64,000 nt of DNA from a virus (IMGVR_UViG_3300024999_000038:1-64000); one strand, 5' to 3'; positions 32,246 to 61,300 are shown, counted from the first letter of the stretch. The notes: a model not told the origin generated them from the sequence alone. Numbers and translations: made by a program.

Positions 32246-32600
32246 GAAGTCCTTTTTCTTTTTCCAATTAATCCATAACAAAATCATTATAACAGACCAC
32301 ACTGTATAACAGATTGATTATAACAGTATAACAATAACAGACTATTAAGCAGGGAACAGTCTATTTTACTTATCCTTAAACATTATACCTCTCACAAATC
32401 AAAACCTCTTATAATGCCCTTCTAGGGCTTATAAACGCTACATATCACACTAATTACATGTACTATTTTAACCCTATATAGTAGAAGCAATAAAATCACA
32501 CCTATAAAAATAAATATTAACTAACATGGTTTTTCCTATTGTTTCTGTGCTATAATATACATAGTAGATCAAATAAATTAAACAAAGGAGTTGCTTACAT

Positions 32601-33080: not shown

Positions 33081-33394
33081 AAGTCTTACCTTTTTCTTTG
33101 TCAATTCTTCCATAACAAAACTATTATAACAGCATAACAATATACTTATAACAAATCAACTTAATTCTACAATATTAAAATAATTATAATTATTTGACAT
33201 ATATCATAAAATTTGATAACATAGAATAAATTATACAAATCTAGAGAAAGGAGAATTAAATTTGAATATTTTAGATTGTTTAGGTTGTAAATATATTGTA
33301 ATTGAAGGTTATTGTTTTGAAATGCAAATAGAAATATACAAACTAAAAACCAAATGTCCTAAATGCACTAGGCAATAAGGAGGAATTTTGAACT

Positions 33395-41673: not shown

Positions 41674-41714
41674 ACATAAGGAAGGGTAAAACCTTCCTTT
41701 AATAATTTTAAGGA

Positions 41715-42580: not shown

Positions 42581-42755
42581 GAGCTAGTTGATAGCTCTTT
42601 TTTCTTTGCTTATGCTATAGTTTTACCCTAGATACATTTAAACCATTTAGAAGTACCATTATGGGCCTTAAAATCTAATATAATTAATATTTGACGTTTG
42701 TATAATTACTATGGTATTATGTATCAGTAATAAATAAAATTGGAGGTTATAAAAT

Positions 42756-43721: not shown

Positions 43722-44498
43722 ATGAAAAATATAAGTATTTCAATTAAAAATCATATTGGAGAAACAAATACCACGGGCTACGGCTCACTAATGACTGTTA
43801 TTAATTATATAGATTATAGAAATATTATTGTAAGATTTGATAAATCGGATTATGAAAAAAATACAAGTTACGAACAATTCAAAGATGGTAGAGTTAAAAG
43901 TCCATATTGCAAATCGGTACATGGTGTAGGATTTTTAGGGGAAGGTAATTATACAAGTAGAATGGGTGAAGAAAAGGCTCCTCAGTATGTAGCGTGGAAT
44001 AATATGTTACAAAGATGTTATTCCGCTAAATTCCAAGCAACAAGACCAACATACATAGGGTGTACAGTTTGTGAAGAGTGGTTAAATTATCAGAATTTCG
44101 CAAAATGGTATGACGAGAATTATTATGAGGTAGAAAGTAAAAGTCAGCGCGGAATGAATCTCGATAAAGATATATTAAAGAAAAATAATAAAGTATATTG
44201 TCCTGAATTTTGCGTTTATGTTCCAGACAGAATTAATTTATTGTTTTTAAAGAAAGATGCAAATCGAGGTAATTTGCCAATAGGTGTAACAACAGAAGGT
44301 AAAAAATATTCTTCTCATAGTGTTATTGATGGTAAAATTGAGCATTTTGGAAATTTTAAAACTCCAGAATTAGCTTTCAATGCTTATAAAAAGTTCAAAG
44401 AAAAATATATAAAACAGGTTGCCGATGAATATAAAAATAAAATACCAAAAATATTATATGATGCATTGTACAGATATAAAGTAGAAATCACGGATTAA
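43722..44498 (+). CDS. HNH-like homing endonuclease with AP2-like C-terminus
   Basis: W..ML.RCY..VCEEW..F..W..LDKDIL..Y.P..C.YVP..N; GNF.T.E.AF.AY. Confidence 0.75.
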   Translation: MKNISISIKNHIGETNTTGYGSLMTVINYIDYRNIIVRFDKSDYEKNTSYEQFKDGRVKSPYCKSVHGVGFLGEGNYTSRMGEEKAPQYVAWNNMLQRCYSAKFQATRPTYIGCTVCEEWLNYQNFAKWYDENYYEVESKSQRGMNLDKDILKKNNKVYCPEFCVYVPDRINLLFLKKDANRGNLPIGVTTEGKKYSSHSVIDGKIEHFGNFKTPELAFNAYKKFKEKYIKQVADEYKNKIPKILYDALYRYKVEITD

Positions 44499-44734
44499 AC
44501 AATTAAGAGGGTTTTCAGCCCTCTTTCCCTATATTCAACTAACCCCAATTAAATTCCATTCTAAGGTCACAAAACATAATCACACGTAGTCCTATACCTT
44601 TATAGATCCAAACGTCTTAAACTCTATCTGGTGTCCTTAAAATCAATTACACGGCATCTTCTATAATTTCATTTATAAGATTCCTTTCCTAAATATAAAT
44701 ATAAAATTTATTTTTATAAATGCCTAAAATGCTA

Positions 44735-44763
44735 TTGCAATTACTGTCAAGATGCTTTAAAAT
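44735..44763 (+). promoter_or_regulatory. sigmaA promoter of the long early operon
   Basis: TTGCAA-17-TAAAAT. Confidence 0.65.
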
Positions 44764-44769
44764 GAGTAC

Positions 44770-45300
44770 ATAAGAGGGAACAAAGAAAACCTCTTGAAGA
44801 ACTAGTCAAAGTCAATTATTCATTTGAATCTAAAAATAATTATACATAAAGGAGGGCAATAACCACAAAGTATCTTGTGGCGTGACTAGGAAAACAACCT
44901 AGCACGAATTCTGTAAAAAGAGTTGAGACGATCTTTGAAAACTGAATTAAGAGACTAGCCAGCCAACACTTGTCAAATAACATACATTAGAGTATTCTTT
45001 TAGAATATCCTCTGAGGGTTAGAATCAAGAAAGTGGTAAAAAATTCGAGTGCGATATGGGCTAGTATAAGCAAAAAAGAGAGAATTAACCAAAAACATTC
45101 TACTAAATCCCTTTAGTTTATCATTATTACAATTTAACTATAACAATTGCATTAAACATGCATAACAAAATTAAAATGTAGGTTGATTGTAATTTAATGT
45201 TAGATTAATTATACTTAGAACTAAAGGGATTAATTTTCCGCAAGGTGTGAGCTTATGACAAATGAGTTTAGACCTTGTGAAAAAATTTAAGAATGAAAGA
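44770..45300 (+). ncRNA. Structured leader RNA containing an rRNA-type boxA (44930-44946)
   Basis: No ORF; at least 6 stems; GATCTTTGAAAACTGAA matches the Firmicute rrn boxA. Confidence 0.6.
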
Positions 45301-45310
45301 GGTTATAATT

Positions 45311-45545
45311 ATGAAAAATTGTAAAACTGTTAACGGACTTGTAAACACGATCAAAAAAGGAGAAGTTGCATTATTGAAGGTGTGGGACATAATGGATGGT
45401 ATTGGCGCAGAAGGAAAAGGAGCATACTTAAATTTAGGTGAAGGGAAATTCAGAGGAAAATTGGTTATTAATTAGGGAATGGGTTGTAGATCAAGATGGT
45501 ATATGGTGCAGTGAAGACACAAAATACTCTAGATTTTATCAATAA
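45311..45545 (+). pseudogene. Small gene with an apparent +1 frameshift at ~45444
   Basis: Removing one G from GGG extends the ORF through SEENWLLIREWVVDQDGIWC..FYQ* up to the terminator. Confidence 0.4.
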
Positions 45546-45871
45546 CCTATCCCAATCAAAAAGACATTTCTTGGGAGTGTCTTTTCTCTATTGTATTAAA
45601 ATCTGATATGATAGAGGAAGGACATTTAAAGTCCTCAAAAAAGGAGAGTATTTTTAATGAACAAGACATCAAATTATTATGAGCAAGTCGGAGACAATCT
45701 AAAAGGTGGAGAGGCCACAAGAGCATACCGACAAGCGCAAAATCAACTAAACCCTTCTGAACCAAATTATTTAGAAAATGTCAAACGAATCCAAAACAAA
45801 ATTATCAAGTCACTATCTTAAAGTTTATTGGTCATTAGCAACAACAAAACATAAATAACAGCATAACAATT

Positions 45872-47254
45872 TTGTTGCTAGTGTCGAATCAATTTAAAGG
45901 AGTGGTAAAAATGTCTGAAGAAAAAGAAATTACCTACACCACTGAAAAACGAGATATTGGAACATTAGTGGAGCATATCGAAAAGCAATACTACACCGTG
46001 GGCAAACATCTTCAAAATTTTCTAGCCGACAAAAAGGAAGCTGAAGGCAAAGAACTAAAAACCCTTCGTGAATTTATGGAATCTCAACGTGGTTATGTTT
46101 GGGAAACTTGGAGAGCATCAAATTTAATTCAGACTGTCTTGCTTAAAAATCCTATCCCTGAAATAACAGTTTACAGAGCCGATGATAAATCACAGTTTCG
46201 CAAAACAGTCGATGGGCAACAAAGACTAACGTCAATTTACCTTTTCATTAATGATGGATTTAAGCTTGACATGAGTAAAACCATGTTTCCTAAATTCACA
46301 ATTGAAGGTGAGCAATTCAACGCTACTGAAACTCTTCAAGGCAAAACATTTTCCCAATTACCTGAACTATGGCAAGACGTTATTCGCGGTTATCAACTAC
46401 GAATAACAACTATGAACAATTGTAGCGAGGAAGATGCTGAAAAAGCATTCGTTCAAATGAATAGCGGTGCTAAAGGGCTGAAAGCTTCAGAAATTCGCAA
46501 AGCAGCAATGGGAACTAGTACACGAAAATTCTTTAGATCAATATTGGATTCTGATTGGGTATTACACGCACTGACCGCACTATCAGCAAAGGGCAACGCT
46601 GGAGACGAAATATTATCACAAGTCATAACATTAGTACATAACAATTGCCCTGTTGAGTTGTCAAAAGACAATATTGACAAGGTTATATATGGGTTCAGGG
46701 AATTAGGACTACCGGAAACCCTTGAGGATGACATGATAAATATCTCCAATTTTCTCAGCCAAGCAACAAATATCTGGATTGAGAACAAGAAGAAAGAAGA
46801 TGCAAAAGAGGGATCTAAGAAAGGAAAGCAGGTTAAAAATTATTCGACTTATCGCTTTACATGGTTAAATAAAACCAATACTGTGATGTTAGTGTATTCT
46901 GCTTATCAAGCAGTAAGAAATAATGTTGAAGTCGAAGAGTTCTCTGCATGGGCATACAACTTCTTTCAATTTCCTACAAAGGAGTATAAGGAGGGTTTAC
47001 AGGACAAAGCGATTGATTTAAAACGTGTTGAAATGCGTATGAGTGCAATTAATGTAGAATTGGGGAAACTAGGTTCTTTTGAACAAGTTCAAGAGGTTGA
47101 GGAAATCATTGAAGAACAATGGGAACAACCTCTGCAAGCTGAAAACCTCAAACCTGTCATAACACCAGACCAAGAAGAGTTGGGCGAAAGCGCAGAAAAC
47201 AAAGAAGAAGCAAAACTAATTCTAAGTATTGCAAATAATACTAATGTTGCCTGA
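45872..47254 (+). CDS. DUF262 (GmrS / ParB-Srx-like) domain protein with acidic tail (likely start 45911)
   Basis: QRGYVW..LI.TVL...PIP..DGQQRLTSI..F..MN.G..L motifs. Confidence 0.8.
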   Translation: MLLVSNQFKGVVKMSEEKEITYTTEKRDIGTLVEHIEKQYYTVGKHLQNFLADKKEAEGKELKTLREFMESQRGYVWETWRASNLIQTVLLKNPIPEITVYRADDKSQFRKTVDGQQRLTSIYLFINDGFKLDMSKTMFPKFTIEGEQFNATETLQGKTFSQLPELWQDVIRGYQLRITTMNNCSEEDAEKAFVQMNSGAKGLKASEIRKAAMGTSTRKFFRSILDSDWVLHALTALSAKGNAGDEILSQVITLVHNNCPVELSKDNIDKVIYGFRELGLPETLEDDMINISNFLSQATNIWIENKKKEDAKEGSKKGKQVKNYSTYRFTWLNKTNTVMLVYSAYQAVRNNVEVEEFSAWAYNFFQFPTKEYKEGLQDKAIDLKRVEMRMSAINVELGKLGSFEQVQEVEEIIEEQWEQPLQAENLKPVITPDQEELGESAENKEEAKLILSIANNTNVA

Positions 47255-47400
47255 ATTGTAAAATAATTATTTTGGGAATTAGTCTTAATTCCCTTCTAAG
47301 TTCATACTAAATGTGATAAACTATATATCATAAGAGTATGAGTTTAGAAGGCAGTTGTGGTTAATACCTATAACAATTGACCTATAACAATTGAAGGAGC

Positions 47401-47661
47401 GTGTTGAAAATGAGTATTACAATTATTAAATTAACCCATAATCTAGAAGAAATTAAGCCAGAATTTAAAAACTGGAATTATTTATCCCAAACTCAAAGAA
47501 ATTTCCTTGAATCTTACAATGAATTCAGAATAACAAATCATGGTCAGGAAATGCTAATTTATCAAGGAAGGTTAATTGTTGCTAGTTGTTCAATATCAAT
47601 GACTTATCATGATAAAATAGTTATTGATAGTATATGGACAAAGGAAGGAGAAATAAAATGA
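47401..47661 (+). CDS. Hypothetical protein
   Basis: RBS; operon context. Confidence 0.6.
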   Translation: MLKMSITIIKLTHNLEEIKPEFKNWNYLSQTQRNFLESYNEFRITNHGQEMLIYQGRLIVASCSISMTYHDKIVIDSIWTKEGEIK

Positions 47662-47819
47662 ACATAAAAGAGGTAGCTCAAGCAATGCAGGAAATTGAAT
47701 TTGTCTTATTTAGTGTTAAAAATGGTGACAGATTACATGCCGGAGAAGTTGAGCGAGCACACAAAAAGGCTCAAGAAATCATGGAAAGACATTTAAAACC
47801 TATGGGAGCATTTGAATAA
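47634..47819 (+). CDS. Hypothetical protein
   Basis: AGGAG RBS before an internal ATG. Confidence 0.6.
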   Translation: MDKGRRNKMNIKEVAQAMQEIEFVLFSVKNGDRLHAGEVERAHKKAQEIMERHLKPMGAFE

Positions 47820-47879
47820 AGGTCGAAACTAGTATAACAAATTAGTTGTACTAGTCCAAGGGTTAAGCCCTTACTGACG

Positions 47880-48695
47880 ATGACCAAATATATTAAGAAA
47901 GAGGTTTTTGAAATGACTAAAACATTATCAACTAAAACATTAGTATTCGAGGGTGCAGGATGGGACGGAGCAGAAGTTAGTACCAAGTCTGGCGTAGGAA
48001 ATTGCAGAATCAGAACTCGTATTCGTAATATTGAAGGTAGACTTATTTATCTAGAATTGGGTGGCACTCAATTTTCAGGTAAACACATTCCAACATATGC
48101 AAAAGGTTTGAATTATGCTTCACACATTGACCATGTTTTTTATGATGATTCTAAATGGGACTCAAAAAGAAATTCTTCTGGAGCATTGTCACATATTCGG
48201 AATATCCATTTTGAGTATAACAAATCATCAATACTCAATTTTGTCAATAAAAATCTTAATTGCTCATTTAATGACATAGAAATAATTAACAAAGGTTTAC
48301 ATGTCCATGATACTGAAGAACCTCTCTGTGATTGCAGTCGAGAAGGTTACATACCATTTAAACAGATAGAAATAAATATTTCTATCTTAGACGGAGTTAA
48401 ACCTATGCAGGATTATAGTGATCGGAGATTAGGCCAATATAAAATCAATTATGATTTTGTCAAAGATTTACCTGTCATTGATAAATGGATTAAAGACAGA
48501 ACAGAGCGAGAACAGCAGGGTTTCCCGAATTATACTTATTATTTCAGTATTAGATGGGATCAAAATGGAATCATTAATAGTCTTGAGTTGTCTGCTAGAC
48601 AAGGTTTTTGTACAATGGGTTTTAGTGCTGAAGACTTGGAAAATGTAATTAATTTTATCAAATTATCAAATGCTAAAATCACATTATCTGCATAA
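47880..48695 (+). CDS. Hypothetical conserved phage protein
   Basis: LVFEGAG..NCRIRT..G..IYLE motif. Confidence 0.7.
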   Translation: MTKYIKKEVFEMTKTLSTKTLVFEGAGWDGAEVSTKSGVGNCRIRTRIRNIEGRLIYLELGGTQFSGKHIPTYAKGLNYASHIDHVFYDDSKWDSKRNSSGALSHIRNIHFEYNKSSILNFVNKNLNCSFNDIEIINKGLHVHDTEEPLCDCSREGYIPFKQIEINISILDGVKPMQDYSDRRLGQYKINYDFVKDLPVIDKWIKDRTEREQQGFPNYTYYFSIRWDQNGIINSLELSARQGFCTMGFSAEDLENVINFIKLSNAKITLSA

Positions 48696-48817
48696 CAATT
48701 CACAAATACCAGTTTAATTATTCTCTGTACCGCGCTATACTGTGTTAAATCCAAATATAATATAGTGCGGTACGGAGAGCATTTAAGCTCTAATAAAATT
48801 CTAGGAGGTTTATTATT

Positions 48818-49228
48818 ATGACAGTTAAAGCATTTGTAAAAGATTGTAAAAACAATAGTTGGAATGAGGTAAAAATTATTGATACTGAAACAGGAGAATT
48901 CACCCAATATAATACTAATAAAAGTATTGGGTTTCCTTTCGGCAATCCGTATACTACCACAGTTTTTCAAATGGGGTATAAATCAGTTGATGAGTGTTTA
49001 AAATCTCTTAAAAAAAATAATTATCTAGGGGATGAGATAGGCTATAAGAAGCAAAAAGAATCGGAAAGAATAGGTTATATTAAGCTAGGAATGGAAAGAA
49101 TTAAGCGAGCAGGGAGAGTCAATACTACAGACTTTGAGGACATTTGCAACAAATTAAATAAATATGGTATGGGTTTCTGTGATGCTCAGAATTCAATTAT
49201 CGAATGTCATTTGCAATGTATAAACTAA
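48818..49228 (+). CDS. Hypothetical protein
   Basis: AGGAGG RBS. Confidence 0.65.
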   Translation: MTVKAFVKDCKNNSWNEVKIIDTETGEFTQYNTNKSIGFPFGNPYTTTVFQMGYKSVDECLKSLKKNNYLGDEIGYKKQKESERIGYIKLGMERIKRAGRVNTTDFEDICNKLNKYGMGFCDAQNSIIECHLQCIN

Positions 49229-49488
49229 AAGGAGTGATTAACATGTTAATAGGTAAAAAAGTTAAAATTATTCCACACGAAAATTTAAGTGATGATTATT
49301 TTAACTTAAATGGTACTATTGTCAATTATCAAGAAGAGGAAGAAATTAAACGAAATCCAGAACATAACAATAACACAGAGCCTGCAGGAAAAATTATTTC
49401 TATGTATCAAATCGAATTTTACCAATTACCAAGGAAAGAAATGTGCAAAAAATTATGGGTATTTGATGATATGTTTAAAATTATCTGA
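49204..49488 (+). CDS. Hypothetical protein (SH3-like start)
   Basis: IGKKVKI..GTIV; RBS. Confidence 0.6.
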   Translation: MSFAMYKLKGVINMLIGKKVKIIPHENLSDDYFNLNGTIVNYQEEEEIKRNPEHNNNTEPAGKIISMYQIEFYQLPRKEMCKKLWVFDDMFKII

Positions 49489-49569
49489 TTTTAAGTTTAT
49501 TGGTCATAAGGTAGCAAAATTATATAACAGATTGTCTGCTACCTTGCGTCGAATTAATTTAAAAGGAGC

Positions 49570-49920
49570 GTGTTAACTATGAATATAAAAACTGATGGCG
49601 TTTGGGTATGGACTGCTAAAGCTGAACAGGTCGCTAAAGAATTGAATCTAGAAGAAAGGAAAGAAAATATCCCTGCATGGTTAGGTTATGAATTACTAGG
49701 CCAATATGCACCTCAAAAATGGGTTGAACTTGTATATGTTAAGGAATCAAAATGTCAAGTATTAATCCATAATTCAAAAACTAAAGAATCAGAATGGATC
49801 AATGGAATTATAACAGGGACTTCAGCCGGAGACGTTGGAGAAGACTTCGAGCGAATTAATGTAGTAGAAAATGGAAATAATTATATTGGTTGTCATCCTA
49901 ATTGTGTCAGGTACATATAA
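49570..49920 (+). CDS. Hypothetical protein
   Basis: RBS. Confidence 0.6.
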   Translation: MLTMNIKTDGVWVWTAKAEQVAKELNLEERKENIPAWLGYELLGQYAPQKWVELVYVKESKCQVLIHNSKTKESEWINGIITGTSAGDVGEDFERINVVENGNNYIGCHPNCVRYI

Positions 49921-50431
49921 TTATTTTGCTGTATAACCAATAACAGCAAGCCCTATAGGGTTCGATGGTATTCCTATAAAATACCCTTCAATATTTTAAA
50001 AGGTGGTTAGATTATGTATATTGACTATGATTATAAAGGTTCTACTGCTTATAACTCAGTTATGGGAGCATCTAAACAAGGTTTAACTAATAGAATCCCA
50101 TACACCAAAAACGCTATTAAATTCCATACGGAAAATAACAATCAAGGACAAATAAAGTTTTTTTACTGGTGAACTTCAATTGATTAATAAAAGGTTGAAG
50201 TCTTTGAGTTATTAAATAATTATTTTCAAATTTACTCTATCTGACGTTTTCAAGTCTGTGATGATATGATACAATAAGTCATGGACTTGAAGCAACAAAT
50301 AATTATTTTGGTAATGCCTAAGCACCTGCAATCTATATAACAGACCATAACAATAGGTTGCAGGTGTTTGGAGTTTATCAAGGTATAAAGATGTGATAGA
50401 CTAAAGAGGAAGAATTAAGGAGGAATACATA

Positions 50432-50869
50432 ATGTTAGAATTAAAGTATGGTGCAATTGTCAAGCATAATGACCAATTAGGGGAATTAGTCACAGAAGAT
50501 GGTAAATTTTATTTTCATCCTGTCAAGTATGGCAATTATTATTGCTCAGACCTAACTGAAGCAACTGAAGAAAATATTCAAGAAACTTCCCACGATGAAA
50601 AGATTGAATATCTCAAACAAGAGTTCCCATGGGGAGAAATTATCAAAGTTCATAACATTGGTGAATATGTTATTTTTGAGTATATTAATGGATATGACCT
50701 TAGAAACGAAGAAAAAACAACTATTATGTTCCATACTTATATGGATTACAAGAATATTGCTAGGTCATATCATTCTCTAGATTCTTGCTTAATCGGCACA
50801 TTAGCGCACAAATATGATGGAGCCAATAGTCAGGCAGCTACATTTTTTAGGCGTATGGTTAAAATGTAA
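50432..50869 (+). CDS. Hypothetical protein
   Basis: AGGAGG RBS. Confidence 0.7.
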   Translation: MLELKYGAIVKHNDQLGELVTEDGKFYFHPVKYGNYYCSDLTEATEENIQETSHDEKIEYLKQEFPWGEIIKVHNIGEYVIFEYINGYDLRNEEKTTIMFHTYMDYKNIARSYHSLDSCLIGTLAHKYDGANSQAATFFRRMVKM

Positions 50870-51194
50870 ATCCCACGAAATACGAATTTCGAAGTATTTT
50901 AAATTAGAAAGGAGTTTTAAAAATGTTTGAATGGATTGTAGAAAATACTAGAACTGTAGAGGGGATTATAAACTTATCAAAACAAGATTTATATTATGCT
51001 TGGAAATATCTTGAAGAGGACAGAATTGAAATGTCAAGCGAAGTTGTTAGTGAATTAGCTACTCAAATGTGTTTTAATTATTAGGGCAGTCAGTGCCCTT
51101 TAAAACCTCCAAATCTGTATAATAATCATAACAGCACACTTACATAGGTTGGAGCGTTTAAAGGATATTGAAATCCTAAATAAAATTAAGGGAG

Positions 51195-51542
51195 TTGTAT
51201 TTAATGGAATTTGATATTAAAAAATCTTATTGGTGTGAAACTGGAAAATTTCAAGAGGAGATAGATAAACTTAATGATTTAATGCCGGACTATGGATATA
51301 CAACTAACGATTATATGAATTTATTTGTTGCAATTTCAAAAGTTTATTATCGTAAATATAACGATGGTGATTCAATTTTTGAATTTGAAAGGATAGTGGA
51401 AAAATATATTGAACCTTTTACAGAGCAAATTAACTTCAATTCTAATAAGGATTATGAAGGGCATGATCTTGAAAATTTAGTTGATAGGGTAGTCGAATTT
51501 ATCAAGGATAAAGATTTAAGGTATGAAAGCATTGAATCTTAG
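51195..51542 (+). CDS. Hypothetical protein
   Basis: YW..G..Q..P..G..YY..YNDG motif. Confidence 0.65.
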   Translation: MYLMEFDIKKSYWCETGKFQEEIDKLNDLMPDYGYTTNDYMNLFVAISKVYYRKYNDGDSIFEFERIVEKYIEPFTEQINFNSNKDYEGHDLENLVDRVVEFIKDKDLRYESIES

Positions 51543-51823
51543 GGCAATCAAAGCCCTTCTAAACCCTTCTGAACTCTCATATCAGCCATAACAGCCAACA
51601 CATTATAACACCACGACTATGAGCGTTCAGGAAAGTATTAAAACCTTAAAATAAATAAAGGAGGAACGCATCAATGAGCAAATTAAAATTACTCCAAGAA
51701 TTCAAAGTAATCTGTGATACTCATCAAATTCCATTCACTTTTGAAAACTTCGAAAAGCTTATCGCTCATATTTCTAAATAATCTTACATATGCTATATTA
51801 AAAAATAAATCCAAAAATAAATT

Positions 51824-52120
51824 ATGAAAGAAGGAATTCCAATGCAAAAGTTTGAGAACTCTCAAAACTTAACCCTGAATGCTTCAATTCTTAATTCCTT
51901 ATATCTAGGTAAAAAATTAGTGTATAGATTCTTCAAAGGAGAAATTATAAATATTGCTTATTATTCAGACCTTGAACCTGTTCCATATGCTGAAGTGAGA
52001 CTAACACTATGGAATAACCGGACAGTCACTAAGATTATGAAGTTATCTGATGTGGTTATTGTTGCTTCCAGTAAAGTTAAGAAGGAAAAGAAATCAAAGA
52101 AATCCAAGGTAGCAGCATAA
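51824..52120 (+). CDS. Hypothetical basic protein
   Basis: RBS; Lys-rich tail. Confidence 0.6.
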   Translation: MKEGIPMQKFENSQNLTLNASILNSLYLGKKLVYRFFKGEIINIAYYSDLEPVPYAEVRLTLWNNRTVTKIMKLSDVVIVASSKVKKEKKSKKSKVAA

Positions 52121-52276
52121 TTTGTGTAATTTAATAGGCATTGCATAAAGCGTAAAATAATTATAACAATTGTCATTCATACGCTCGCTCATGCAATGCA
52201 ATTTTAAAATACATTGGTTAGAATGTATTAGTCGTTTTAACTATAACAAAAGCATTAAGGAGGTCGCCCAACTACT

Positions 52277-52537
52277 ATGTCAAACATAAATGTATTAAAA
52301 TCTAATTATGATATCATTCTTAGAGAAGCAAGTCAAAAAGGATTTACTTATACTGGAGATAATTTATTATCCTATATTCAGTGGAAATCAAAAGGATATA
52401 TGATCACAAGAGACCAGAAGGCGTTCATTATGGTTTATCTCTGGAATAAAGGTGAGAACAGAAGGAAAGTATTAACTGGACTCTTTACATCAGAGCAAGT
52501 TAAGAAAACTCGATGCAATCAATTTAGTATGGTATAA
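52277..52537 (+). CDS. Hypothetical protein
   Basis: AAGGAGG RBS. Confidence 0.65.
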   Translation: MSNINVLKSNYDIILREASQKGFTYTGDNLLSYIQWKSKGYMITRDQKAFIMVYLWNKGENRRKVLTGLFTSEQVKKTRCNQFSMV

Positions 52538-52592
52538 TCTTGTAAATGGCATTTATGCTATAACAGTTTGAGTTCTGATATTCAGAGATTAT

Positions 52593-52853
52593 TTGAATAA
52601 ATTACTAGGAGGTTTTAACATGATGCAAGATGAATATAAAAATGATTTTTTCAGTCAAAAGTTTTGTTGGGTATTAGATAGCAGAACATTCTTTCAACAT
52701 CAAAGTGCAAAGGAATATTTGATTAGGATGCAAAAACGATCAGAACAATTTGTTGTAGGTTATTTGGTATTACTGAAAGAAGAATATTATAGACTAAAGG
52801 ATCAGAAAGAGCAGACAAATCAATTAGAGGAATTATTAAAGGATACTATATAA
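52593..52853 (+). CDS. Hypothetical protein
   Basis: RBS before an internal ATG. Confidence 0.6.
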   Translation: MNKLLGGFNMMQDEYKNDFFSQKFCWVLDSRTFFQHQSAKEYLIRMQKRSEQFVVGYLVLLKEEYYRLKDQKEQTNQLEELLKDTI

Positions 52854-53023
52854 GTCCTTTAGCGTTGATATCTACGCCATTTTAGCAATAACAGAACACT
52901 CAAAATGGTTGCAGGTATTTATGCTAAAGTCCTTGTAATGGGCTAATAAATAAGAAAGGAGAAGAAATTTAGGTCTATAAATAACAAAATAAATAAAAAG
53001 AAAGAAGGTATAAATAAAAAAGA

Positions 53024-53926
53024 ATGACAAGAGAAGAACGCAAACAAATAAGTTATAATTTAGTTCATAGAATAAATAATGATGGAGTAGAAGAAAAGTA
53101 TTGTAATAATTGTAAGACATGGAAAATAATGAACCTAGATAACTTTTACAAATGGAAAAGTAGTAAAAATGATGGACTTCATCCACAATGTAAAGAGTGT
53201 GTTAAAAAGAATGCAATAATTAACAAAAGCAATAATAAAGAAAGATATTCTGAATATGATAGACAATATCGCGGAAGAGATAACAATAAAGAAATTATGA
53301 ATGAAAGAAGTAGACAGTGGATGGTAGATAATCGTGAATATGCTAAAAATTATATTAAATTGTGGCAACAATCCGAAGGAGGTAAACAATACTTTAATAC
53401 TTATTGGCATGAAAAAGGAAAACAACATCAACATGATATATCAGAAAAAGAATGGGAAGCATGTAAAAAATATTTTAATTATAAGTGTGCTTATTGTGGA
53501 ATGCCATTAGAATTACATAAAGAGATAGTAGGTCAAGATTTACATAGAGAGCATAAAGACCATAATGGATCAAATGGTCTATCTAATTGTGTTCCTTCCT
53601 GTAGATTATGTAATAGCACAAAACACGATAAATTATTTGATGATTGGTATAATAAATCTAATCAAAATTATACGAAGTCAAGACATAATAAGATAATTAG
53701 ATGGACTACAGAAGGATATAAGGATTATGTAGAAGAAAAACAGCCTTATAGAATTGTTAAAAAGAAAAATGAGAATGATAATAAATTCCATTGGCAATTA
53801 TGGTTAGTAGATGAAAAAAGAAACATGACAAAATGTATTGAAGTTAAAGTTAAAAAGAAAGAAATAATTAAAGATATAGAAGGAGGGATTCTAGATGAAA
53901 TATCAATACATGAAGTAGCAAAATAA
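53024..53926 (+). CDS. HNH endonuclease
   Basis: KYCNNC..CKEC N-terminal finger; CAYCG..HREH..NCVPSCRLCNSTK. Confidence 0.85.
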   Translation: MTREERKQISYNLVHRINNDGVEEKYCNNCKTWKIMNLDNFYKWKSSKNDGLHPQCKECVKKNAIINKSNNKERYSEYDRQYRGRDNNKEIMNERSRQWMVDNREYAKNYIKLWQQSEGGKQYFNTYWHEKGKQHQHDISEKEWEACKKYFNYKCAYCGMPLELHKEIVGQDLHREHKDHNGSNGLSNCVPSCRLCNSTKHDKLFDDWYNKSNQNYTKSRHNKIIRWTTEGYKDYVEEKQPYRIVKKKNENDNKFHWQLWLVDEKRNMTKCIEVKVKKKEIIKDIEGGILDEISIHEVAK

Positions 53927-54024
53927 TATTAATTGTAACACCTAGACTACTCATGTAAACTGTGATAGTCTAGGTATACCTTTTAGGATATTACATTGGA
54001 TGGTAGCGAAAGGAGTGATTATAA

Positions 54025-54318
54025 ATGACAAATCATGATAAGTTTTATAATTGGTTAAAGAAAAATCAAAATCAAAATAAACCTGTAGAGATTTCAGTAC
54101 ATGCTTATGAATTTGGATATTATGCAACATGGAAGAATGGATTTTCTGTTCAAGTTGGAGATGCTATTCGAGACAATGTAACAGGCAATGTAATTAACTT
54201 ATTACTTGATGCTGAAGATTATGACTTAACTTTTGATCCTGATGTAATGAGTGTTATTCCTGAAGGAGATTGTGAAGCAGGTACAGAACATTTTTCAATA
54301 GGTTTTAAATTGATCTAA
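54025..54318 (+). CDS. Hypothetical protein
   Basis: RBS. Confidence 0.65.
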   Translation: MTNHDKFYNWLKKNQNQNKPVEISVHAYEFGYYATWKNGFSVQVGDAIRDNVTGNVINLLLDAEDYDLTFDPDVMSVIPEGDCEAGTEHFSIGFKLI

Positions 54319-54384
54319 ATAATCTGTGCTAACGATTTAATCCCATAGACTACATAACAGAAATAACTTATAACAGCAGGGCAT

Positions 54385-54717
54385 ATGGGTTTGTGGGATT
54401 ATATCATAGCATTGGTTGCTAAATTAAATCTAAAGGAGAGTGAATCAATGAACGGATGGTTATCTCCAGAAGGTAAATTCTACAGCACTTTCAATTTACT
54501 ATCTCATTATAAAAAGGCTGAAGAAATTGCAGATTGGAATGAGATTAGTTTTAATATTATTGATCCTTTGACTAATACTCATCCTTGGTGTGCAGAAAGA
54601 TTATTAGAGGTTTTAGGTTGGTTTAAAATTGGAAGCGATGAAAGGATTATAGATTTAGATGTTGATGCTTTAACAGATAAGCAAATTAAGTTTTTGTTGA
54701 AGCATAAATTAGTGTAA
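54385..54717 (+). CDS. Hypothetical protein (likely start MNGWLSPEG)
   Basis: GWLSPEG.F..H..L..LGW..LT.KQ motif. Confidence 0.65.
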   Translation: MGLWDYIIALVAKLNLKESESMNGWLSPEGKFYSTFNLLSHYKKAEEIADWNEISFNIIDPLTNTHPWCAERLLEVLGWFKIGSDERIIDLDVDALTDKQIKFLLKHKLV

Positions 54718-54801
54718 TTATATATTTGTCAATATTTGTATAACAGCCGACCATATTTATTGCATGGACTTTTTAATAAAAATTATTAGGAGGAATATAT
54801 T

Positions 54802-55023
54802 ATGAAAATACCAAAAGACAATCAATTTACTTATAAAACAAGTGATGGAATGATTAAAGGATATTTCAATATTTATCAAGGAAAAGATGGTAGAATATAT
54901 TTACTTATGGGCGAATCAGTAACTCCTTTATCCATGAAACAAATTCAAGAATTACGCATAGATTGCTATTCTCTTATTGATTTTGATCATGAATTGTATA
55001 TGAAATCTTACTTAGTCAATTAA
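54802..55023 (+). CDS. Hypothetical protein
   Basis: AGGAGG RBS. Confidence 0.65.
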   Translation: MKIPKDNQFTYKTSDGMIKGYFNIYQGKDGRIYLLMGESVTPLSMKQIQELRIDCYSLIDFDHELYMKSYLVN

Positions 55024-55101
55024 AATGTTATTTTTATTTGGTGGAATTTGTATTTAATAAATTAAAGGATGTGATGCAATTTGATTGTAAATATTGATTA
55101 A

Positions 55102-55785
55102 ATGATAATAAATAAAGAAAAGAAGGAGAATATACATATGGTTTTAAAATCAATTAAAAAATCAAGTCGAGTTGACGGAATTATAAATATTCCTAAGAAT
55201 GAAGAAATAATTAACAAAGAAGTATTCGATATAATGTTAAAACAAATGGAAGATGATATGAAAGTTGGTATTAATACAACAACTTTTGAATACGTTTATT
55301 CACTGGTTCAAAATATTAGGTATAATCGTTCAATATTATTAAATTCTCCAACGGTGAGGCATGTTTATAATTTTCTAAAAGTATTATATGAAAATAGTGG
55401 TGATAATAAATATCATTATTTTGCCCAAGATGTATTTCAAGATTATGTTGATCTAAAAAAGATGGAAGTTGACTATCCTGAAAGAAAAATAAAAGAGTAT
55501 ATTATAGAAAATTTTAATGAAATATTTTTTAATTACAAATTCATAAAATCAGAATACCATATTAATAATGAAAACTTTATAGACATTTTAGCTGAAAATA
55601 AATTAACTAAACATAAAGTAATCATTGAAATTAAAAAATCTAAGAATAACCCAAATCCACAACTTATTAGATATGGTAAACATTTTGAAAATCCTGAATT
55701 GGTCGCAATATCAGAAGAACCAATAAAAACTCAATTAGACAATGTACAATATTATTTAGTAGAATATATTATTAAAAAAGAATAA
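55102..55785 (+). CDS. NucS-like PD-(D/E)xK endonuclease domain protein
   Basis: E..I..YI..SEY..FIDILAE..IIEIK..QL.RY. Confidence 0.65.
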   Translation: MIINKEKKENIHMVLKSIKKSSRVDGIINIPKNEEIINKEVFDIMLKQMEDDMKVGINTTTFEYVYSLVQNIRYNRSILLNSPTVRHVYNFLKVLYENSGDNKYHYFAQDVFQDYVDLKKMEVDYPERKIKEYIIENFNEIFFNYKFIKSEYHINNENFIDILAENKLTKHKVIIEIKKSKNNPNPQLIRYGKHFENPELVAISEEPIKTQLDNVQYYLVEYIIKKE

Positions 55786-56181
55786 GCAATCACCAATTAA
55801 TTAAAACCCTAACCACTATAACAATAACAGTGGTTAGGTTGGGCAGTTTCAAAGCATGAAAAATTCCATTGCTCCGACTGTATGGTAAACATATAATAAA
55901 TTTTAGGAGGTTAAAAATTATGAAACACGATTGTTGGACTTGTTTACACTTAATTTGTGACAGAATTGAAGAAACATCTTGTAACAAAGGTAATAATTTA
56001 TTCCCTATTTTCATAGAAAACAAATGTCAAGACTGGAATGAATAGATCAATAATCTAAAAATCCTAAAATACAATACTATTTACAAAAATTAAAAATAAA
56101 TTTGTTGATGGTATTGTATTTTTATACTAATGGATATATAATGTAAGTAAGAAATAAAATATTAGAAAGAAGGAGTACATA

Positions 56182-56415
56182 ATGTTAAAAAGAAAAATTG
56201 GTGATAAAGTATTCATAAATCCATATTCAGATGTTACAGGTGTAATCATAGATTCTAAGGAAGCAAATTCAGAATTTAATCCAAATTGGGATTACAAAGT
56301 TAAGTTTGACAATCCAGTAAGTTATGGTTTCGGGCCAGTAGAATCAGAGTATTTCAACGATGTTGAACTGGATAAACTTTTAAGTAACTGGAATGTGATT
56401 AAAGGAATTAAATAA
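56182..56415 (+). CDS. Hypothetical protein (SH3-like)
   Basis: KIGDKV..GVI..YKVKFD; preceded by a promoter. Confidence 0.65.
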   Translation: MLKRKIGDKVFINPYSDVTGVIIDSKEANSEFNPNWDYKVKFDNPVSYGFGPVESEYFNDVELDKLLSNWNVIKGIK

Positions 56416-56429
56416 AGGAGTGATACATA

Positions 56430-56645
56430 ATGAGCAACGATGAAAAAATCAAGAACAGCATCAAGATTGAATTTGTGGATTATAATGGAGATAAGCATAT
56501 GTTTTATAATGAAGAAGCTCCGTCCAATCAAGTTGAGTTTGTTGGTAAAAGTCTAGCAAAATTCTTTAAATCTATTGGATGGTCAGAAACTGTTATAGAT
56601 GATGCTTTAGAGAGCCTACAATTTGAGTTAAATTGTTTGAAATAA
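56430..56645 (+). CDS. Hypothetical protein
   Basis: RBS. Confidence 0.65.
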   Translation: MSNDEKIKNSIKIEFVDYNGDKHMFYNEEAPSNQVEFVGKSLAKFFKSIGWSETVIDDALESLQFELNCLK

Positions 56646-57130
56646 TCCCAAGAAAGGCAGAATTTATGGTATGTGAAAGGAAGTTTGATTACATGTCAAA
56701 AAATATAAAAGAATATAAAGTTATTAGTGGATATTACGAAGGTAAAACTCTTATTGCTTCTGACGATGCATTATGGCAAAGACATCCTGCATGGCCTTGT
56801 GATCATTGGATTTGTGACGAAGATTCCGATTATACTAAAGAGCATTGTAAATTAATTGAATTTGAAAGGATGAGTAAAATGGAAAATTACACCCCTGAAA
56901 AACATGGGATAGTAACAGCAATTAGACTTTTCTATGAAAATGACAGGCAACCAATGGCGGAATTAGCTTTTTGTTTTGGTGGTACAGATATTATTGAGTG
57001 GACAAATGTTAGTCAAAGAGAAAAATATAGTAAGGGAATTAACGGTTATACATTTTTCTTTGATGAAAGACAGAGAAATGATTTTGAAAGTTTTAAGAAA
57101 ATAACGGAGAATCTATGCAAATATGCCTGA
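56633..57130 (+). CDS. Hypothetical protein
   Basis: Operon context. Confidence 0.6.
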   Translation: MFEIIPRKAEFMVCERKFDYMSKNIKEYKVISGYYEGKTLIASDDALWQRHPAWPCDHWICDEDSDYTKEHCKLIEFERMSKMENYTPEKHGIVTAIRLFYENDRQPMAELAFCFGGTDIIEWTNVSQREKYSKGINGYTFFFDERQRNDFESFKKITENLCKYA

Positions 57131-58244
57131 ATTAATTATGGAGATAAAGGATAAGTTATTATTAAGTTTAATTAAAAAAGAAAGAAAGAAGGAATTTATA
57201 ATGAGTCATTTTACTGTTGCTGTATTTACTGATGGAAACAAAACTGTTGAGGAATTATTAGCTCCATATCAAGAAAATAATATGGGAAATTGCCCAGAAG
57301 AATATATGGAGTTTAATGATGTTACTGAGGAATATCTAAAAGAGTATGAAAATGATGGTAATGAAATGGTTAAAACTCATGAAGGTGAATTATTGTATAA
57401 ATGGGATGATAAATTTAGAAAACCAAAGACTATTGGTACTGGTTTGGATACTCACGAAATCCCTGAAAACAAAGGATATGAAATAGTATATGTAAAACAC
57501 AATGAAAGATATAAAACCTTTGATGAATTTATCCAAGATTATTGTGGTTATGAAAAAGACGAAAAGACAGGTAAATATGGAAATTGGGAAAATCCTAATG
57601 CTAAATGGGATTGGTATCAAGAAGGTGGAAGATGGTCTGGATTGCTAAAGTTAAAATCTAAATTATATTTAACGAGCAATAATACATTCAATACTCTTGG
57701 ATTTAATCAAAATGAATTTTTGAATTTTGTTAATTGGTATAAAAATGATAAAGACAAGTTCGATTCAATTATTAATAAATACAAAGGCGTAGAACAAAAG
57801 ATCATAGATGAAGTAAAAATGTATATAGGTATGATGGAAAGTCCAGTGAAAAAAGTAAATTCTGCAAAAATTAAAGATATTGATTTTTCTTTAGATGCTA
57901 ATGAATATAACAAAGCTATTAGATTTTGGGAATTAATTGTTGAAGGAGATACGCCTAAAAACAAAGAAGAGGAAGATATAGTTGGGTGGTGTTTCTACAA
58001 ACCAGAGTACTATAGTAGTAGATACAAAAATAAAGAACAATATGCACAATTAACTGCCGAATTTGGCACATATGCAGTAATTACTCCAGATGGTATATGG
58101 CATTCAAAAGGTGATATGGGTTGGTTTGGTTTTAGTTCTGAATCTAGTGAAGAAGCAAATAATTGGATCATTAGTTTTAAAGAAAAGTTTATTAATAACT
58201 CTGATCCAGAATGGACTTTAACAGTTGTAGATTGTCATATTTAA
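57123..58244 (+). CDS. Conserved phage protein (likely start MSHFTVAV, 57201)
   Basis: NPNAKWDWY..GGRW and TYAVITPDG.W..G.MGW..VVDCH motifs. Confidence 0.75.
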   Translation: MPELIMEIKDKLLLSLIKKERKKEFIMSHFTVAVFTDGNKTVEELLAPYQENNMGNCPEEYMEFNDVTEEYLKEYENDGNEMVKTHEGELLYKWDDKFRKPKTIGTGLDTHEIPENKGYEIVYVKHNERYKTFDEFIQDYCGYEKDEKTGKYGNWENPNAKWDWYQEGGRWSGLLKLKSKLYLTSNNTFNTLGFNQNEFLNFVNWYKNDKDKFDSIINKYKGVEQKIIDEVKMYIGMMESPVKKVNSAKIKDIDFSLDANEYNKAIRFWELIVEGDTPKNKEEEDIVGWCFYKPEYYSSRYKNKEQYAQLTAEFGTYAVITPDGIWHSKGDMGWFGFSSESSEEANNWIISFKEKFINNSDPEWTLTVVDCHI

Positions 58245-58371
58245 ATAAATGTCCTTGTGTGGTGGACAAATTAAACCTTAAATAGAAGTAAATCCACCAT
58301 ACAAAGACATCATATCCGATAAATTGTAACATTTAATTGAAATTATTATAAATAATAAGGAGTGATTAAAA

Positions 58372-61300
58372 ATGGACACTACAACATGTATCTCCGAAAT
58401 AAGAAACAAAATTGAGAAAGCAAGAATTAATGTGGCACAAGGAATGGATGAATATGAAGCTTTTAATGCGGTTTATGATTATATGTCTTTCTCACAGAAA
58501 TGTGGTCTATTAGAAAAGGAAGCTTTAAATATATTGTGGAGAGAGTTGCAAGAAGCAACAAATATTATTTAAAAATAGAAAGGAGAATTTTAATATGAAT
58601 AATTATTTTGTTGCTCTAGAATTACCTTCTGGTGGCAGTCTTGGATTTAATGTTGAAGCATATGGAGAACACGATGCTTATAGAAAAGTTATTATGTTTT
58701 TACCAGATGATTTAATTCAATTAGGCATAGTTCATCATATAGTGATTCCACAATGTAGGATTGATTGTGATTTTTTAAGAAAGGGAAATGATTAATATGA
58801 GAAGTGCAGAATCTTTAAAATTATTAGAAATTGGTGTTCTTAAAAAGGGATGTAAAGTAAAAATGAATGGTCTTAAAGGTTTTGATACATTTACAGAAAT
58901 TGATGATGCTTTTATTAAGAAAGCAAGACCAGGAGAATTAGAAGATGACTGGGTAGTGGTCGTAATTAATGGGCAAACATATGATTCAGCTTGGATAAGC
59001 GAAGTGGAAGAAACGATTAATATGACATGTAGTGAGTGTAAAAACAACTCAATAACAAATCCTAACCTTAAATTTATAACTTGTCATGATTGTTGTTTTG
59101 GAAAAACGTGTTTTGAATGTGATGAATGCAGAGAATGTGATGGTTATGTTATTAAATTTGAGAAGAAAGAAGGTTAATTAAAATGTATAAAGAAAATGAC
59201 AAAGTTATGATTACATGCAAAGAGATTAGTAGTAAAGATGAACTAGCATATATTGCTTCTAAAACTCCTTTTGGTGCGTATGAAGTAACATTATTAATGG
59301 ATCATGAACCAAGAAAGGCATTCGATCCTGTTAGAATATTTGGAACAGATCAAATTAGTCTTGCTACAGAACAGGAAATTACTGATGCTGTGAGAGAATG
59401 GGAAGAGAAGCATAATTATAAATTAGGAGGTATGATATAATATGAGCATAACCGGATGGGTTAATAAAGAAGATTTAACCTTTAAGGAATACAGCAGTCT
59501 ATGTCCAACATATGGGTTGTTTAAAGGAGTTAATTTTGAAAAGGTCAAATATTACAGGGACGAAGATGGTAAAATTTATGAATTAAGCTATTGCATAGAT
59601 GGTAGTATGAACGAAAGATTAGAAAAATTGAGAATCGAACAAAAGAAAAAAGAAATTATGAAGAGTTTTGGATTATAATAAGATGAAAGGATGATTGATT
59701 ATGAATTACAACAAACTTAAAGATGATATAATTATGGGTAAGGGTTTTAAAATGTTATGTAATGAATGTGGCAATGAAATTATTTTTCAACAAGAGTTAA
59801 CTCCTGAGTGCTATGACGATAAAAATATTCAAGTTTCTTTTAGAAGAAATGATATTAGTTTTGGTTTTATCTGTACTTGTGGCAATTCAGCATATGTGAG
59901 TGATTAGTGGTAATCAATGATCAATGATTATGTAGTTAAATTTGAGTAGAAAGAAGGATAATTATTGTGAATGATTGTTTTACATGTGAATTTGCAAAAA
60001 GAGATATACACAATAGGTTTGAAGATAGATGTTCTGGTTTTAGTAATTGTAGTTATTCTAAATTTGAGGGAAATATTAAACCAACTCTTAAACAATATCT
60101 TGAAGATATTCAAAGAAATATTTCTACATCTAAAATGGATAATACCTATAAGAACGGTTTTAATTTTGCTATTCAACTTATTGATGAGTGGGAAGCAACT
60201 GAATAAAATAACTATTGATCCTTTTAAGACAGAGAATAAAAATAAATTCTCTGTCTTTTTATTATTCTTATTGACTATATATTTATTTGTGATATAATTT
60301 AAATAGTAAAATAAATATTTGGAGGAATACATATGTCAAACGTAAGAAGAATTTATGGAAGATTGAATGATTACATTGGACTACAAAGGTCTATGATTCT
60401 AAAAGAACATAATGGAGAAATGAATATTTCCAAATCCTCTAATGGAGGTTTTCATTTATTCCTTACATCTAACAAAGGTTTTACCTATGGCTTTGATTTA
60501 AATGCGTTTAAACAAGCTACCGCAGATTATGAGCATTTACTAAACAAGAACGAAAATGAAAGAAAAACCTTTGTTGTTGAGGTTGAAAATGAAAGACTTA
60601 GAAAAGAACTTGAACATTGGGGATACTAGGAAACTGGTACTTTAAGGGATAGAAAGGAAATGATTAAAATGAGTTATAAACTATCAAAATATGAAGCAAT
60701 AGAGCAAGTGAAAAGACTTAGAATTGACGGTATATTATCATATATGCCTAATTTATATCCAACTTCTGAAACTCGTATCAAATGGGTAACAGAGTTTATG
60801 CTGTATCTTGAAAATGATTATTCAGGAAATCATAATGGACTTAGAGCTTGTACGGCAGAGTTCAACAGGCATTATTGGATACCAAAATATAAGAGTGATT
60901 GGAGTGAATTATAATGAACACATTTAGAGAATTCTATAATCATTCTGTTGATATGGTAAATTGTATACCAATGTCAAGTTTAAAAGATAAAGAAAAATTC
61001 AGAGATATGATAATGATACACTGTGTTAACTTTGCTAAACATTATGCAAAAGATATTAAATTCAAAAATGAAGCAGATGAGTTTTTGAATTATCAATTGA
61101 AATACAATAGACGTTGAAAGGAGAATACATAATGGATAAGTTCAAAATCATGAAAGAGGCATTAGAAAAAATATCAAATGCATGTGATGTTTTTGATATG
61201 ACAGGCAAAAGTGATTACGACTGTTTTGAAGAATGTATATACATTGCTTCAAAAGCATTGAGTCAAATAAAAGAAGAAAAACATTGCTTGGTTGATTATT

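Follow-up and report, generated by a model that had tools for sequence, protein, structure and literature searches.

Short signals placed between the genes of an early message are known from several phages. In lambda, the nut site (boxB and the N protein) stands at the head of an early operon, and it is the loop rather than the stem of this RNA hairpin that is read. In T7 and in the Bacillus phages SP82 and SPO1, long imperfect stems without U tails lie between early cistrons as RNase III sites, and in T4 a short word in the intergenic early message, GGAG, marks the site of a phage-specific action at the RNA level, that of RegB. A further parallel comes from the ssoA single-strand origins of rolling-circle plasmids, which are long imperfect hairpins of variable stem with a conserved 6-nt word (CS-6) in the terminal loop and which are active as single strands and in one orientation only. 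Here we describe an array of elements that resembles each of these systems in part. It lies in the window analysed, the first 64 kb (64,000 nt) of the 150-kb IMG/VR phage contig IMGVR_UViG_3300024999_000038, which is rated 71% complete and which represents a small family of large SPbeta-like phages. Between 45 and 56 kb, the genes of this phage are separated by long hairpins with variable stems, most of which present the hexamer ATAACA in the loop; the same hexamer recurs in two unstructured tandem arrays at 32.3 and 33.1 kb and has been purged almost completely from the remainder of that DNA strand.

The first-pass annotation of the window listed 16 long imperfect stems without U tails between the genes of this region. 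When each site was folded and compared with 200 dinucleotide shuffles, all 16 were found to fold as + strand RNA far better than the shuffles (z from -2.7 to -9.5), and at 13 of them no shuffle reached the native fold. A terminator scan detected no U tract at any of the 16, and the combination of a G+C-rich stem with a U tract that defines intrinsic terminators was absent from these hairpins. Folding of both strands, which the annotation had proposed as a check, gave a mean z of about -4.9 for the + strand and a weaker value, about -3.3, for the - strand; the + strand fold was the more stable at 10 of the 16 sites, at several of them by 8-15 kcal/mol, and the hairpin at 50318-50371 reached -28 kcal/mol on the + strand vs -17 on the - strand (z of -6.3 vs -2.2). 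The stems measure 10-23 bp and the hairpins start 4-25 nt past the upstream stop codon, at a variable distance (8-67 nt) from the next ribosome-binding site. The remark that mismatches are mostly G-T on the + strand also held when the stem appositions of 48 motif hairpins from five genomes were counted, since 713 were Watson-Crick, 89 G-T and 23 A-C, vs a G-T:A-C ratio that we estimate at about 1.5:1 from composition alone. Compensatory changes were observed as well: a single pair of the 54334 stem is T-A, A-T or G-C in three phages, the 49507 stem differs from that of the related contig L004 by two G-C to G-U changes and one A-U to G-C change, and the paralogous hairpins at 45827 and 49507 have the same outer flanks and inner stems that are different yet fully compensated. 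Because of the stability bias, the G-T excess and these compensatory changes, we conclude that the structures are under selection and that selection acts on the + strand, which could be the mRNA or + strand single-stranded DNA. No Rfam covariance model matched at E <= 1 in 44.4-58.5 kb, and the only Rfam matches elsewhere in the window were one tRNA and one skipping-rope RNA. The short GGGC..GCCC hairpins said to precede several of the long ones were seen at 51083 and 51542.

ATAACA lies in the terminal loop at 10 of the 16 sites (45106, 45836, 49508, 50320, 51097, 51566, 52138, 52856, 54339 and 55808), in agreement with the figure of about 10 in the annotation, and at an eleventh, 47829, it stands at the loop-stem edge, half within the stem, so that 11 of the 16 carry the word in or at the loop. 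The loops at the other five (47292, 48722, 50249, 53940 and 58255) are different; linear copies trail the first of these (47370 and 47384), and one at 48692 overlaps the stop codon ahead of 48722. The proposed count by strand gave 38 copies on the + strand of 45-56 kb, where about 8 were expected, and 3 on the - strand, and the intergenic DNA of this interval (2,562 nt) holds 22 copies vs 0.6 expected from the other intergenic DNA of the genome. Among hexamers ranked by clustering, ATAACA is first in the studied genome (G000) and second in G001, a complete relative of 178 kb. The full form of the word is H-ATAACA-R, with G preceding 1% of the copies and a purine following 87%. In partition-function folds of the + strand spacers, the mean probability of being unpaired was 0.74 for the motif bases vs 0.45 for the intergenic background, a value that was reached by none of 2000 random placements, whereas the complement of the motif showed no preference in the - strand fold (0.50 vs 0.49). 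Terminal loops hold 16 of the 22 mostly unpaired copies but 32% of the unpaired bases (P = 1e-4), in 14 of 48 loops from five genomes the word occupies the very first positions, and doublets occur frequently.

Six related contigs show an excess of the same orientation of the word in the corresponding region (48:6, 35:7, 32:7, 35:4, 30:2 and 9:5). The leader hairpin at 45094-45236 is near-invariant in six phages, and almost all of its changes keep the pairing (C-G/U-G/U-A exchanges, many of them one-sided G-U). Otherwise the region is mosaic among the relatives, and the hairpins at 49490-49568, 50290-50403 and 54319-54404 recur as modules beside different genes; the spacer at 47292-47389 is likewise kept entire as a module in L004 and L006, and the homology block common to L004 and L005 begins 5 nt ahead of the word at 48692. 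SPbeta has no clustered hexamer of this kind, and a scan of IMG/VR for three spaced copies of ATAACA in other phage clades yielded nothing beyond repeats of giant viruses and coding repeats, the latter being runs of Ile-Thr and Asn. A family in which the loop is fixed and the stem varies implies a dedicated sequence-specific reader of single-stranded nucleic acid. In this respect the elements depart from RNase III sites, where the enzyme reads the duplex independently of the loop; a loop hexamer that is shared, enriched and conserved, and avoided elsewhere, does not belong to those sites, and RNase III alone, which needs no loop word, falls short as a full account. The nearest analogue is the RegB system, although GGAG doubles as a ribosome-binding site and is not presented in loops, and no RegB homologue was found in the studied genome.

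The organization of the genes bears on what such a reader might do. In the 32-45 kb interval, one single-gene unit follows another, each with a consensus extended -10 promoter and a canonical terminator, but strong promoters of the sigma-A type and strong terminators are both missing between 45.6 and 60.2 kb. A real terminator-promoter pair first appears at 60226/60271, and the sole + strand terminator-like site within 45.1-60.2 kb, at 45559, lacks a real T run. This 15-kb unit, filled with hairpins and opened by the leader hairpin, is best read as one operon. As with lambda nut, a hairpin of conserved loop is present in the predicted early transcript, but these phages have 20-45 sites per genome vs two, with loops of 8-31 nt that often hold two copies, and they add unstructured arrays and a strand-wide purge without a strong terminator to override. 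Indeed, no strong + strand terminator suited to read-through was detected in 45.1-60.2 kb or in 64-84 kb. Antitermination is therefore unlikely, because no strong terminator precedes 60226 and none occurs in the next 20 kb, and the suggestion that the hairpins reload an antiterminator is not supported. No N-type arginine-rich protein was identified among the small open reading frames (ORFs), which have no family match and whose composition was not analysed, and no conserved linear box was noticed beside the hairpins, boxA itself not having been searched for.

We tentatively favour the view that the transcript of an early accessory (anti-defence-like) operon at 45.1-60.2 kb carries H-AUAACA-R as a single-strand address tag. 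The operon would be transcribed as one long message in which cistrons end 4-25 nt before a stable hairpin that would display the word unpaired, often twice and often at the first loop position. A sequence-specific single-strand binder, probably encoded by the phage and probably a dimer or multimer, would dock on the loops, the leader and both arrays, and it would set the fate of the message gene by gene, be it endonucleolytic processing, 3'-end protection or timed decay; a tag of such potency would have been removed from other + strand sequence. We infer RNA as the carrier, a protein as the reader and the effect of binding. One lead to the reader is the PIN-PhoH protein encoded at 12597-13847 on the - strand, a fusion of PhoH2 architecture (a predicted RNA helicase-nuclease) that is also encoded by G001 and by a further relative, G003, but not by SPbeta. 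The lead rests on the specificity of mycobacterial PhoH2 proteins of this architecture, which were reported to unwind and cut RNA at AC[A/U][A/U][G/C] (PMC7390352).

The distribution of the word over the rest of the genome was analysed in G000, G001 and G003, excluding 32-33 kb and 45-56 kb, with expectations taken from Markov models and from synonymous codon shuffles in which every protein was kept. On the + strand ATAACA is the most depleted non-homopolymer hexamer, beyond AGATCT and CTTAAG. Under minus-strand genes 1 copy was seen where 18.9 were expected in G000, 8 where 20.5 were expected in G001 and 3 where 52.5 were expected in G003; under plus-strand genes the values were 13 vs 62.5, 20 vs 77.4 and 3 vs 20.1, respectively. 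Pooled over the three genomes, this amounts to 12 vs 92 (P = 1e-25) for minus-strand genes and 36 vs 160 (P = 2e-32) for plus-strand genes. The reverse complement occurs at 0.6-1.0 of its expectation, and 17 of the 18 single-base variants are at expectation, the other one, ATAAGA, being mildly depleted in + strand gene regions only. In the synonymous shuffles, minus-strand genes avoid sense TGTTAT (2 vs 26.7 ± 4.0 in G003) but not sense ATAACA, and plus-strand genes avoid sense ATAACA (8 vs 26.8 ± 4.7; 13 vs 31.8) but not sense TGTTAT. The word is tolerated in the coding sequence of the operon itself (9 vs 3.1 expected). Because both gene orientations avoid the word on the + strand through synonymous choice, the polarity of the purge is a property of the DNA strand and not of the transcript, which is a further difference from the GGAG word of T4. 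Selection against spurious - strand promoters of the extended -10 type (TGnTAT) was discarded as its origin, since ATATCA, ATAGCA and ATACCA are found at expectation.

The purge and the two arrays weigh against an RNA tag. Where genes lie on the minus strand, ATAACA is missing from their antisense strand, and AUAACA is as frequent in their messages as expected; neither observation follows from an RNA tag. Arrays B1 and B2, which are unstructured, sit directly behind the strong intrinsic terminators of the first two early genes and before the next promoter, and most transcripts should therefore omit them. The PIN-PhoH protein of the studied phage is only 32-34% identical to those of G001 and G003, yet all three phages use the same word, and the reader itself was not found, since the small proteins encoded here have no match in Pfam or PHROGs. 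Of the earlier proposal that a sequence-specific RNA-binding protein or nuclease acts across the operon, the sequence-specific factor is supported by the + strand folds, the variable stems and the shared loop word, but a restriction to RNA does not predict the purge under minus-strand genes. A purge of this kind would be predicted by any process that exposes or scans one strand genome-wide, and the displaced strand of rolling-circle replication, a packaging motor and polar DNA entry are candidates.

One such possibility is that the word is read on single-stranded + strand DNA, for instance a displaced strand, or a lagging-strand template, exposed when concatemers are made by unidirectional rolling-circle replication, where the hairpins would present it to a DNA-binding protein for priming, loading, nicking or protection and where stray copies would be harmful and purged. 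This is the only simple route to a purge of one strand whatever the gene direction. It also agrees with the loop presentation and with the strand asymmetry, given that G-T pairs stabilise DNA hairpins too, it lets the arrays behind terminators work without transcription, and the ssoA origins offer a parallel. Replication of SPbeta-type phages as concatemers (10.1101/2021.11.22.469490) is a further point in its favour. However, the composition of four-fold-degenerate sites is equal in minus- and plus-strand genes, so that one-way replication has left no mutational footprint. Moreover, neither the presence of 25-45 sites within one 11-20 kb stretch and none elsewhere nor their placement exactly at the cistron ends of a promoter-poor operon is explained, and ssoA is present as one origin per plasmid vs dozens of sites in a double-stranded DNA phage of 150-180 kb. 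Neither a rolling-circle initiator nor a gene of the HUH or Rep type was detected; among the relatives, G003 alone encodes an IS200-type Y1 transposase (109206-109568; E = 8e-45), which is probably a recent insertion. We regard single-stranded DNA as the sole carrier as unlikely, although a hybrid in which an RNA reader also binds exposed + strand DNA is possible.

The exactness of the purge (17 of 18 variants at expectation, with the mild ATAAGA deficit), its orientation specificity and its independence of transcription are also what a polar signal in double-stranded DNA would show, such as one that is read in a single orientation by the travelling terminase or by a protein bound to it and that slows or stops headful packaging before pac, or one that acts in DNA entry, the RNA hairpins being a separate matter. 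Loops would then hold the word for no other reason than that, placed in a stem, it would also appear inverted. A non-coding stretch at 30.0-31.9 kb, which by gene order corresponds to the pac region of SPbeta, has both clusters within about 26 kb on its right side, and the copy number and spacing of array B2, beside this pac-like region, are conserved. SPbeta packs from pac toward the late genes with almost no permutation, and with the same direction in the studied phage, which is inferred from SPbeta, both clusters would be in the last-packaged, first-injected DNA. Nevertheless, the preference for terminal loops and the loops that begin with the word have no reason in a duplex, the word is unpaired only in the + strand fold, and we know of no polar packaging signal of 6 bp. 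A purely duplex signal is thus quite improbable. A broader formulation, a genome-polar single-strand code in which the hexamer is allowed on one strand only in loops or arrays near the packaging end, appears possible, though on the unlikely side; its reader would see that strand single-stranded or in one direction of travel, as a rolling-circle tail, in the packaging motor or as entering DNA.

Restriction offers another source of depletion. In the whole genome of the studied phage, two palindromes are nearly missing, AGATCT (0 copies vs 40 expected) and CTTAAG (3 vs 32); this is classical restriction-site avoidance and hints at the enzymes of the host, and the purge of ATAACA matches these cases in size and exactness. 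Evasion of Type III enzymes is classically recognised by the loss of sites in one orientation, as for the EcoP15I sites of T7; in both cases, most of the genome almost lacks one orientation of an asymmetric hexamer. Hairpins of an ordinary RNase III or stabiliser kind might then coincide with an ATAACA bias that comes from escaping a Type III-like host enzyme that needs inverse sites. In these phages, however, the forbidden orientation is about fivefold enriched at 32-33 and 45-56 kb (52 copies, conserved in all relatives and placed in loops). These + oriented copies stand among - oriented ones, which lie between and beyond the two clusters, so that inverted pairs are plentiful. As it is very unlikely that the same hexamer would serve both phenomena by coincidence, we find this explanation hardly credible.

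The absence of strong sigma-A promoters from a unit in which the word precedes almost every gene would be accounted for if the word were the promoter core for the YonO-type enzyme (14744-17440) or for the host polymerase with a phage factor, as an N4-like hairpin or an AR9-like word. The YonO-like polymerase is encoded next to a sigma-region-4-like protein, and AR9 late promoters contain AACA. This proposal is highly improbable because the G-T asymmetry points to the non-template strand as the one that folds, the hairpins stay close to the upstream stop codon and at a variable distance from the next start, leftward copies are unpurged although they would drive antisense transcription, and no conserved copy precedes the late genes in relatives. 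A double copy on the - strand behind the yonN homologue (11168) was considered as a YonO late promoter and rejected, as it is missing in G001 and G003; the P-YonO region of SPbeta has no such word.

The mosaic structure of the region, with the same hairpins beside different genes, also recalls gene cassettes, and the hairpins could be recombination sites like integron attC or like T4-type promoter-stem-loop modules (PeSL), with the word as the crossover or recognition core. Like those cassettes, small promoterless genes in a mosaic, hyperplastic region carry a 3' hairpin, the boundaries of some homology blocks fall only a few bases from a word (48687 and 52172), a ATAATTATTTTG box that follows stop codons stands at an indel boundary, and a small conserved tyrosine recombinase is encoded 18 kb downstream. 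Yet attC core sites (RYYYAAC and GTTRRRY) are paired at the stem base, whereas here the loop displays the word unpaired and the stems have no common sequence at their base, and the two arms, which co-evolve, would be parted by a crossover in the loop. The array has no integrase beside it, and a short enzyme at 74.3 kb is the sole conserved tyrosine recombinase; tandem arrays and a genome-wide 6-mer purge are not attC features; and the early promoter joined to each PeSL stem-loop has no counterpart in 45.6-60.2 kb, which lacks strong sigma-A-type promoters. Since mosaicism is equally expected from ordinary homologous exchange at conserved regulatory spacers, recombination as the function of the hairpins is very unlikely.

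Table 1. Word-bearing elements, tandem arrays and the end of the transcription unit (window coordinates; "word" is ATAACA).
Element	Position	Strand	Description
Leader	45094..45236	+	143-nt long imperfect hairpin, two ATAACA in apical part; z = -5.4; most conserved piece of the region
Second leader hairpin	45238..45292	+	Loop ATGACA in G000, ATAACA in relatives L004 and L007
Hairpin	45827..45889	+	Two words in loop; paralogue of 49507 hairpin
Hairpin and doublet	47292..47389	+	No word in 47292-47352 hairpin; linear words at 47370 and 47384 before ribosome-binding site
Short hairpin	47829..47856	+	Word partly paired through G-U
Word and hairpin	48692..48790	+	Word on stop codon (48692); very stable hairpin 48711-48790 with a different loop, z = -9.5
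Hairpin	49489..49564	+	One word, 8-nt loop
Small hairpin	49927..49948	+	ATAACC and ATAACA in loop and 3' arm
Hairpin	50318..50371	+	19 bp; 16-nt loop with word at both ends
Hairpin	51105..51155	+	One loop word; GGGC..GCCC hairpin upstream
Hairpin	51567..51632	+	Two words in 31-nt loop; GGGC..GCCC hairpin upstream
Two-storey hairpin	52138..52199	+	Word in apical loop
Hairpin	52857..52929	+	One loop word
Hairpin	54334..54405	+	Two loop words; kept in relatives while flanking genes differ
Hairpin	55808..55838	+	10 bp; loop consists of two overlapping words
Linear intergenic words outside hairpins	52243, 52560, 52981, 54740 (52243..54745)	+	
Array B1	32275..32339	+	Six tandem copies, start-to-start 14, 17, 14, 8, 6; 20 nt behind intrinsic terminator
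Array B2	33112..33153	+	Four copies, spacing 14, 8, 14; between terminator and next sigma-A-type promoter
Terminator	60226..60257	+	First strong intrinsic terminator past the leader; consensus promoter at 60271; taken as unit end

The copies of array B2 and their 14/8/14 spacing are kept in G001 and in relatives from metagenomes that show 67-77% identity in the upstream protein, and the array is missing in one relative in which this protein is 64% identical. Neither Pfam nor the protein atlas returned anything for P0001 and P0002, the proteins whose terminators precede the two arrays. In the promoter downstream of B2 (33194-33222), the -10 hexamer TAACAT overlaps ATAACA in a non-consensus context, with T after the word. 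The terminators of 32000-45000 share one common form, AAGAG...CTCTT followed by TTTTCTTT, and the promoters there have near-consensus TG-extended -10 elements. In the genes of 32000-56000, C occupies 13% of the four-fold-degenerate sites vs 7% elsewhere in the genome (G, 6%), and their codon usage is thus distinct from that of the rest of the genome.

The proteins of the 45.1-60.2 kb unit are small orphans, together with GmrSD-N, HNH and NucS-like domains, and a DarA C-terminal domain is encoded upstream of it, in 32-45 kb. Flanked by two hairpins of the array, the very A+T-rich HNH endonuclease gene at 53024-53926 probably represents a free-standing mobile endonuclease. The box ATAATTATTTTG occurs just past stop codons at 47264, 49917, 50217 and 50297, one copy ending in C; two copies flank a one-gene segment (49.93-50.29 kb) that is missing in L005, an arrangement that suggests deletion or insertion through short-homology exchange. 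Beyond the window, positions 64001-84000 of the contig (L157) hold tightly packed + strand genes without a strong sigma-A-type promoter or a + strand terminator, probably as very long transcription units.

With respect to the wider setting, the window DNA has a G+C content of about 28%. Searches with SPbeta proteins (tblastn) matched homologues of YonN, YonJ, YopQ and YopR in the studied genome and additionally YonO (23% identity, E = 9e-9), YorI and YorJ in G001, and a YonO-type RNA polymerase, YonN and the YopQ/YopR module are present in SPbeta order. A search with the YonO-like protein found no close relatives among isolate genomes. Minus-strand genes occupy 1-30 kb, including those for the 898-amino acid YonO-like ORF, the PIN-PhoH protein, a C5 methylase and a UvrD-type helicase, and from 31.9 kb onward all genes are on the + strand. 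The 30.0-31.9 kb interval at this switch is non-coding; SPbeta shows the same gene layout, with its pac site in the equivalent gap, yonP/yonR. The left half of this 1.9-kb stretch (30000-31900) is G+T-rich with repeated GATTTATTGA-like words, and CTATC, CTACC and ATACC words abound in the A+C-rich right half; by its position, matching the yonP-yonR pac region of SPbeta, it is a candidate pac site or origin. The gene for the 898-amino acid YonO-type polymerase homologue (14744-17440, - strand) overlaps by 4 nt that of a 483-amino acid protein (together 14744-18888) with sigma-70 region-4-like helix-turn-helix units, a zinc ribbon and a PvuRts1I-like N-terminal domain, and this protein could be a specificity partner of the polymerase. 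The skipping-rope RNA (Rfam RF02924, 70.8 bits) and a tRNA-Thr (UGU) lie at 9994-11092 on the - strand between the yonN and yonJ homologues; at the equivalent place in SPbeta, a YonO transcript was reported to start upstream of an unannotated non-coding RNA. A GIY-YIG/NUMOD3 gene is found at 11776-12531, also on the - strand.

Some further partners of the word were considered and rejected. Complementary UGUUAU loops in a phage small RNA, which might form a kissing complex, were not found, and the TGTTAT copies between genes in 34-44 kb mostly belong to promoters of the TGnTATAAT type. Pairing with an anticodon loop (the phage tRNA-Thr UGU, or tRNA-Asn, to whose loop UAACA is complementary), considered from sequence only, found no support. 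As for the SPbeta repressor operator (SPBRE), the palindromes annotated in SPbeta bear no relation to ATAACA.

Phages commonly carry hairpins between their cistrons, but a family whose sole constant part is the loop word points to a factor, so far undescribed, that reads single-stranded RNA or DNA. It would act on a cluster of small early genes, and domains linked to restriction or defence are matched by some of them (GmrSD-N, NucS-like and HNH, with the DarA C-terminal domain upstream), and reader and tag might serve as an orthogonal pair for tagging RNA or single-stranded DNA. The purge is, through synonymous choice, as strong as restriction-site avoidance, and its polarity matches no standard explanation that we considered. 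If true, a genome-polar code would be an undescribed kind of cis-signal, one that links the control of early genes to the physical polarity of the chromosome. The late polymerase promoter, the packaging machinery and the early regulation of SPbeta-type phages are still poorly understood, and the polarity of the purge provides a clue to a one-directional step in the life of these phages.

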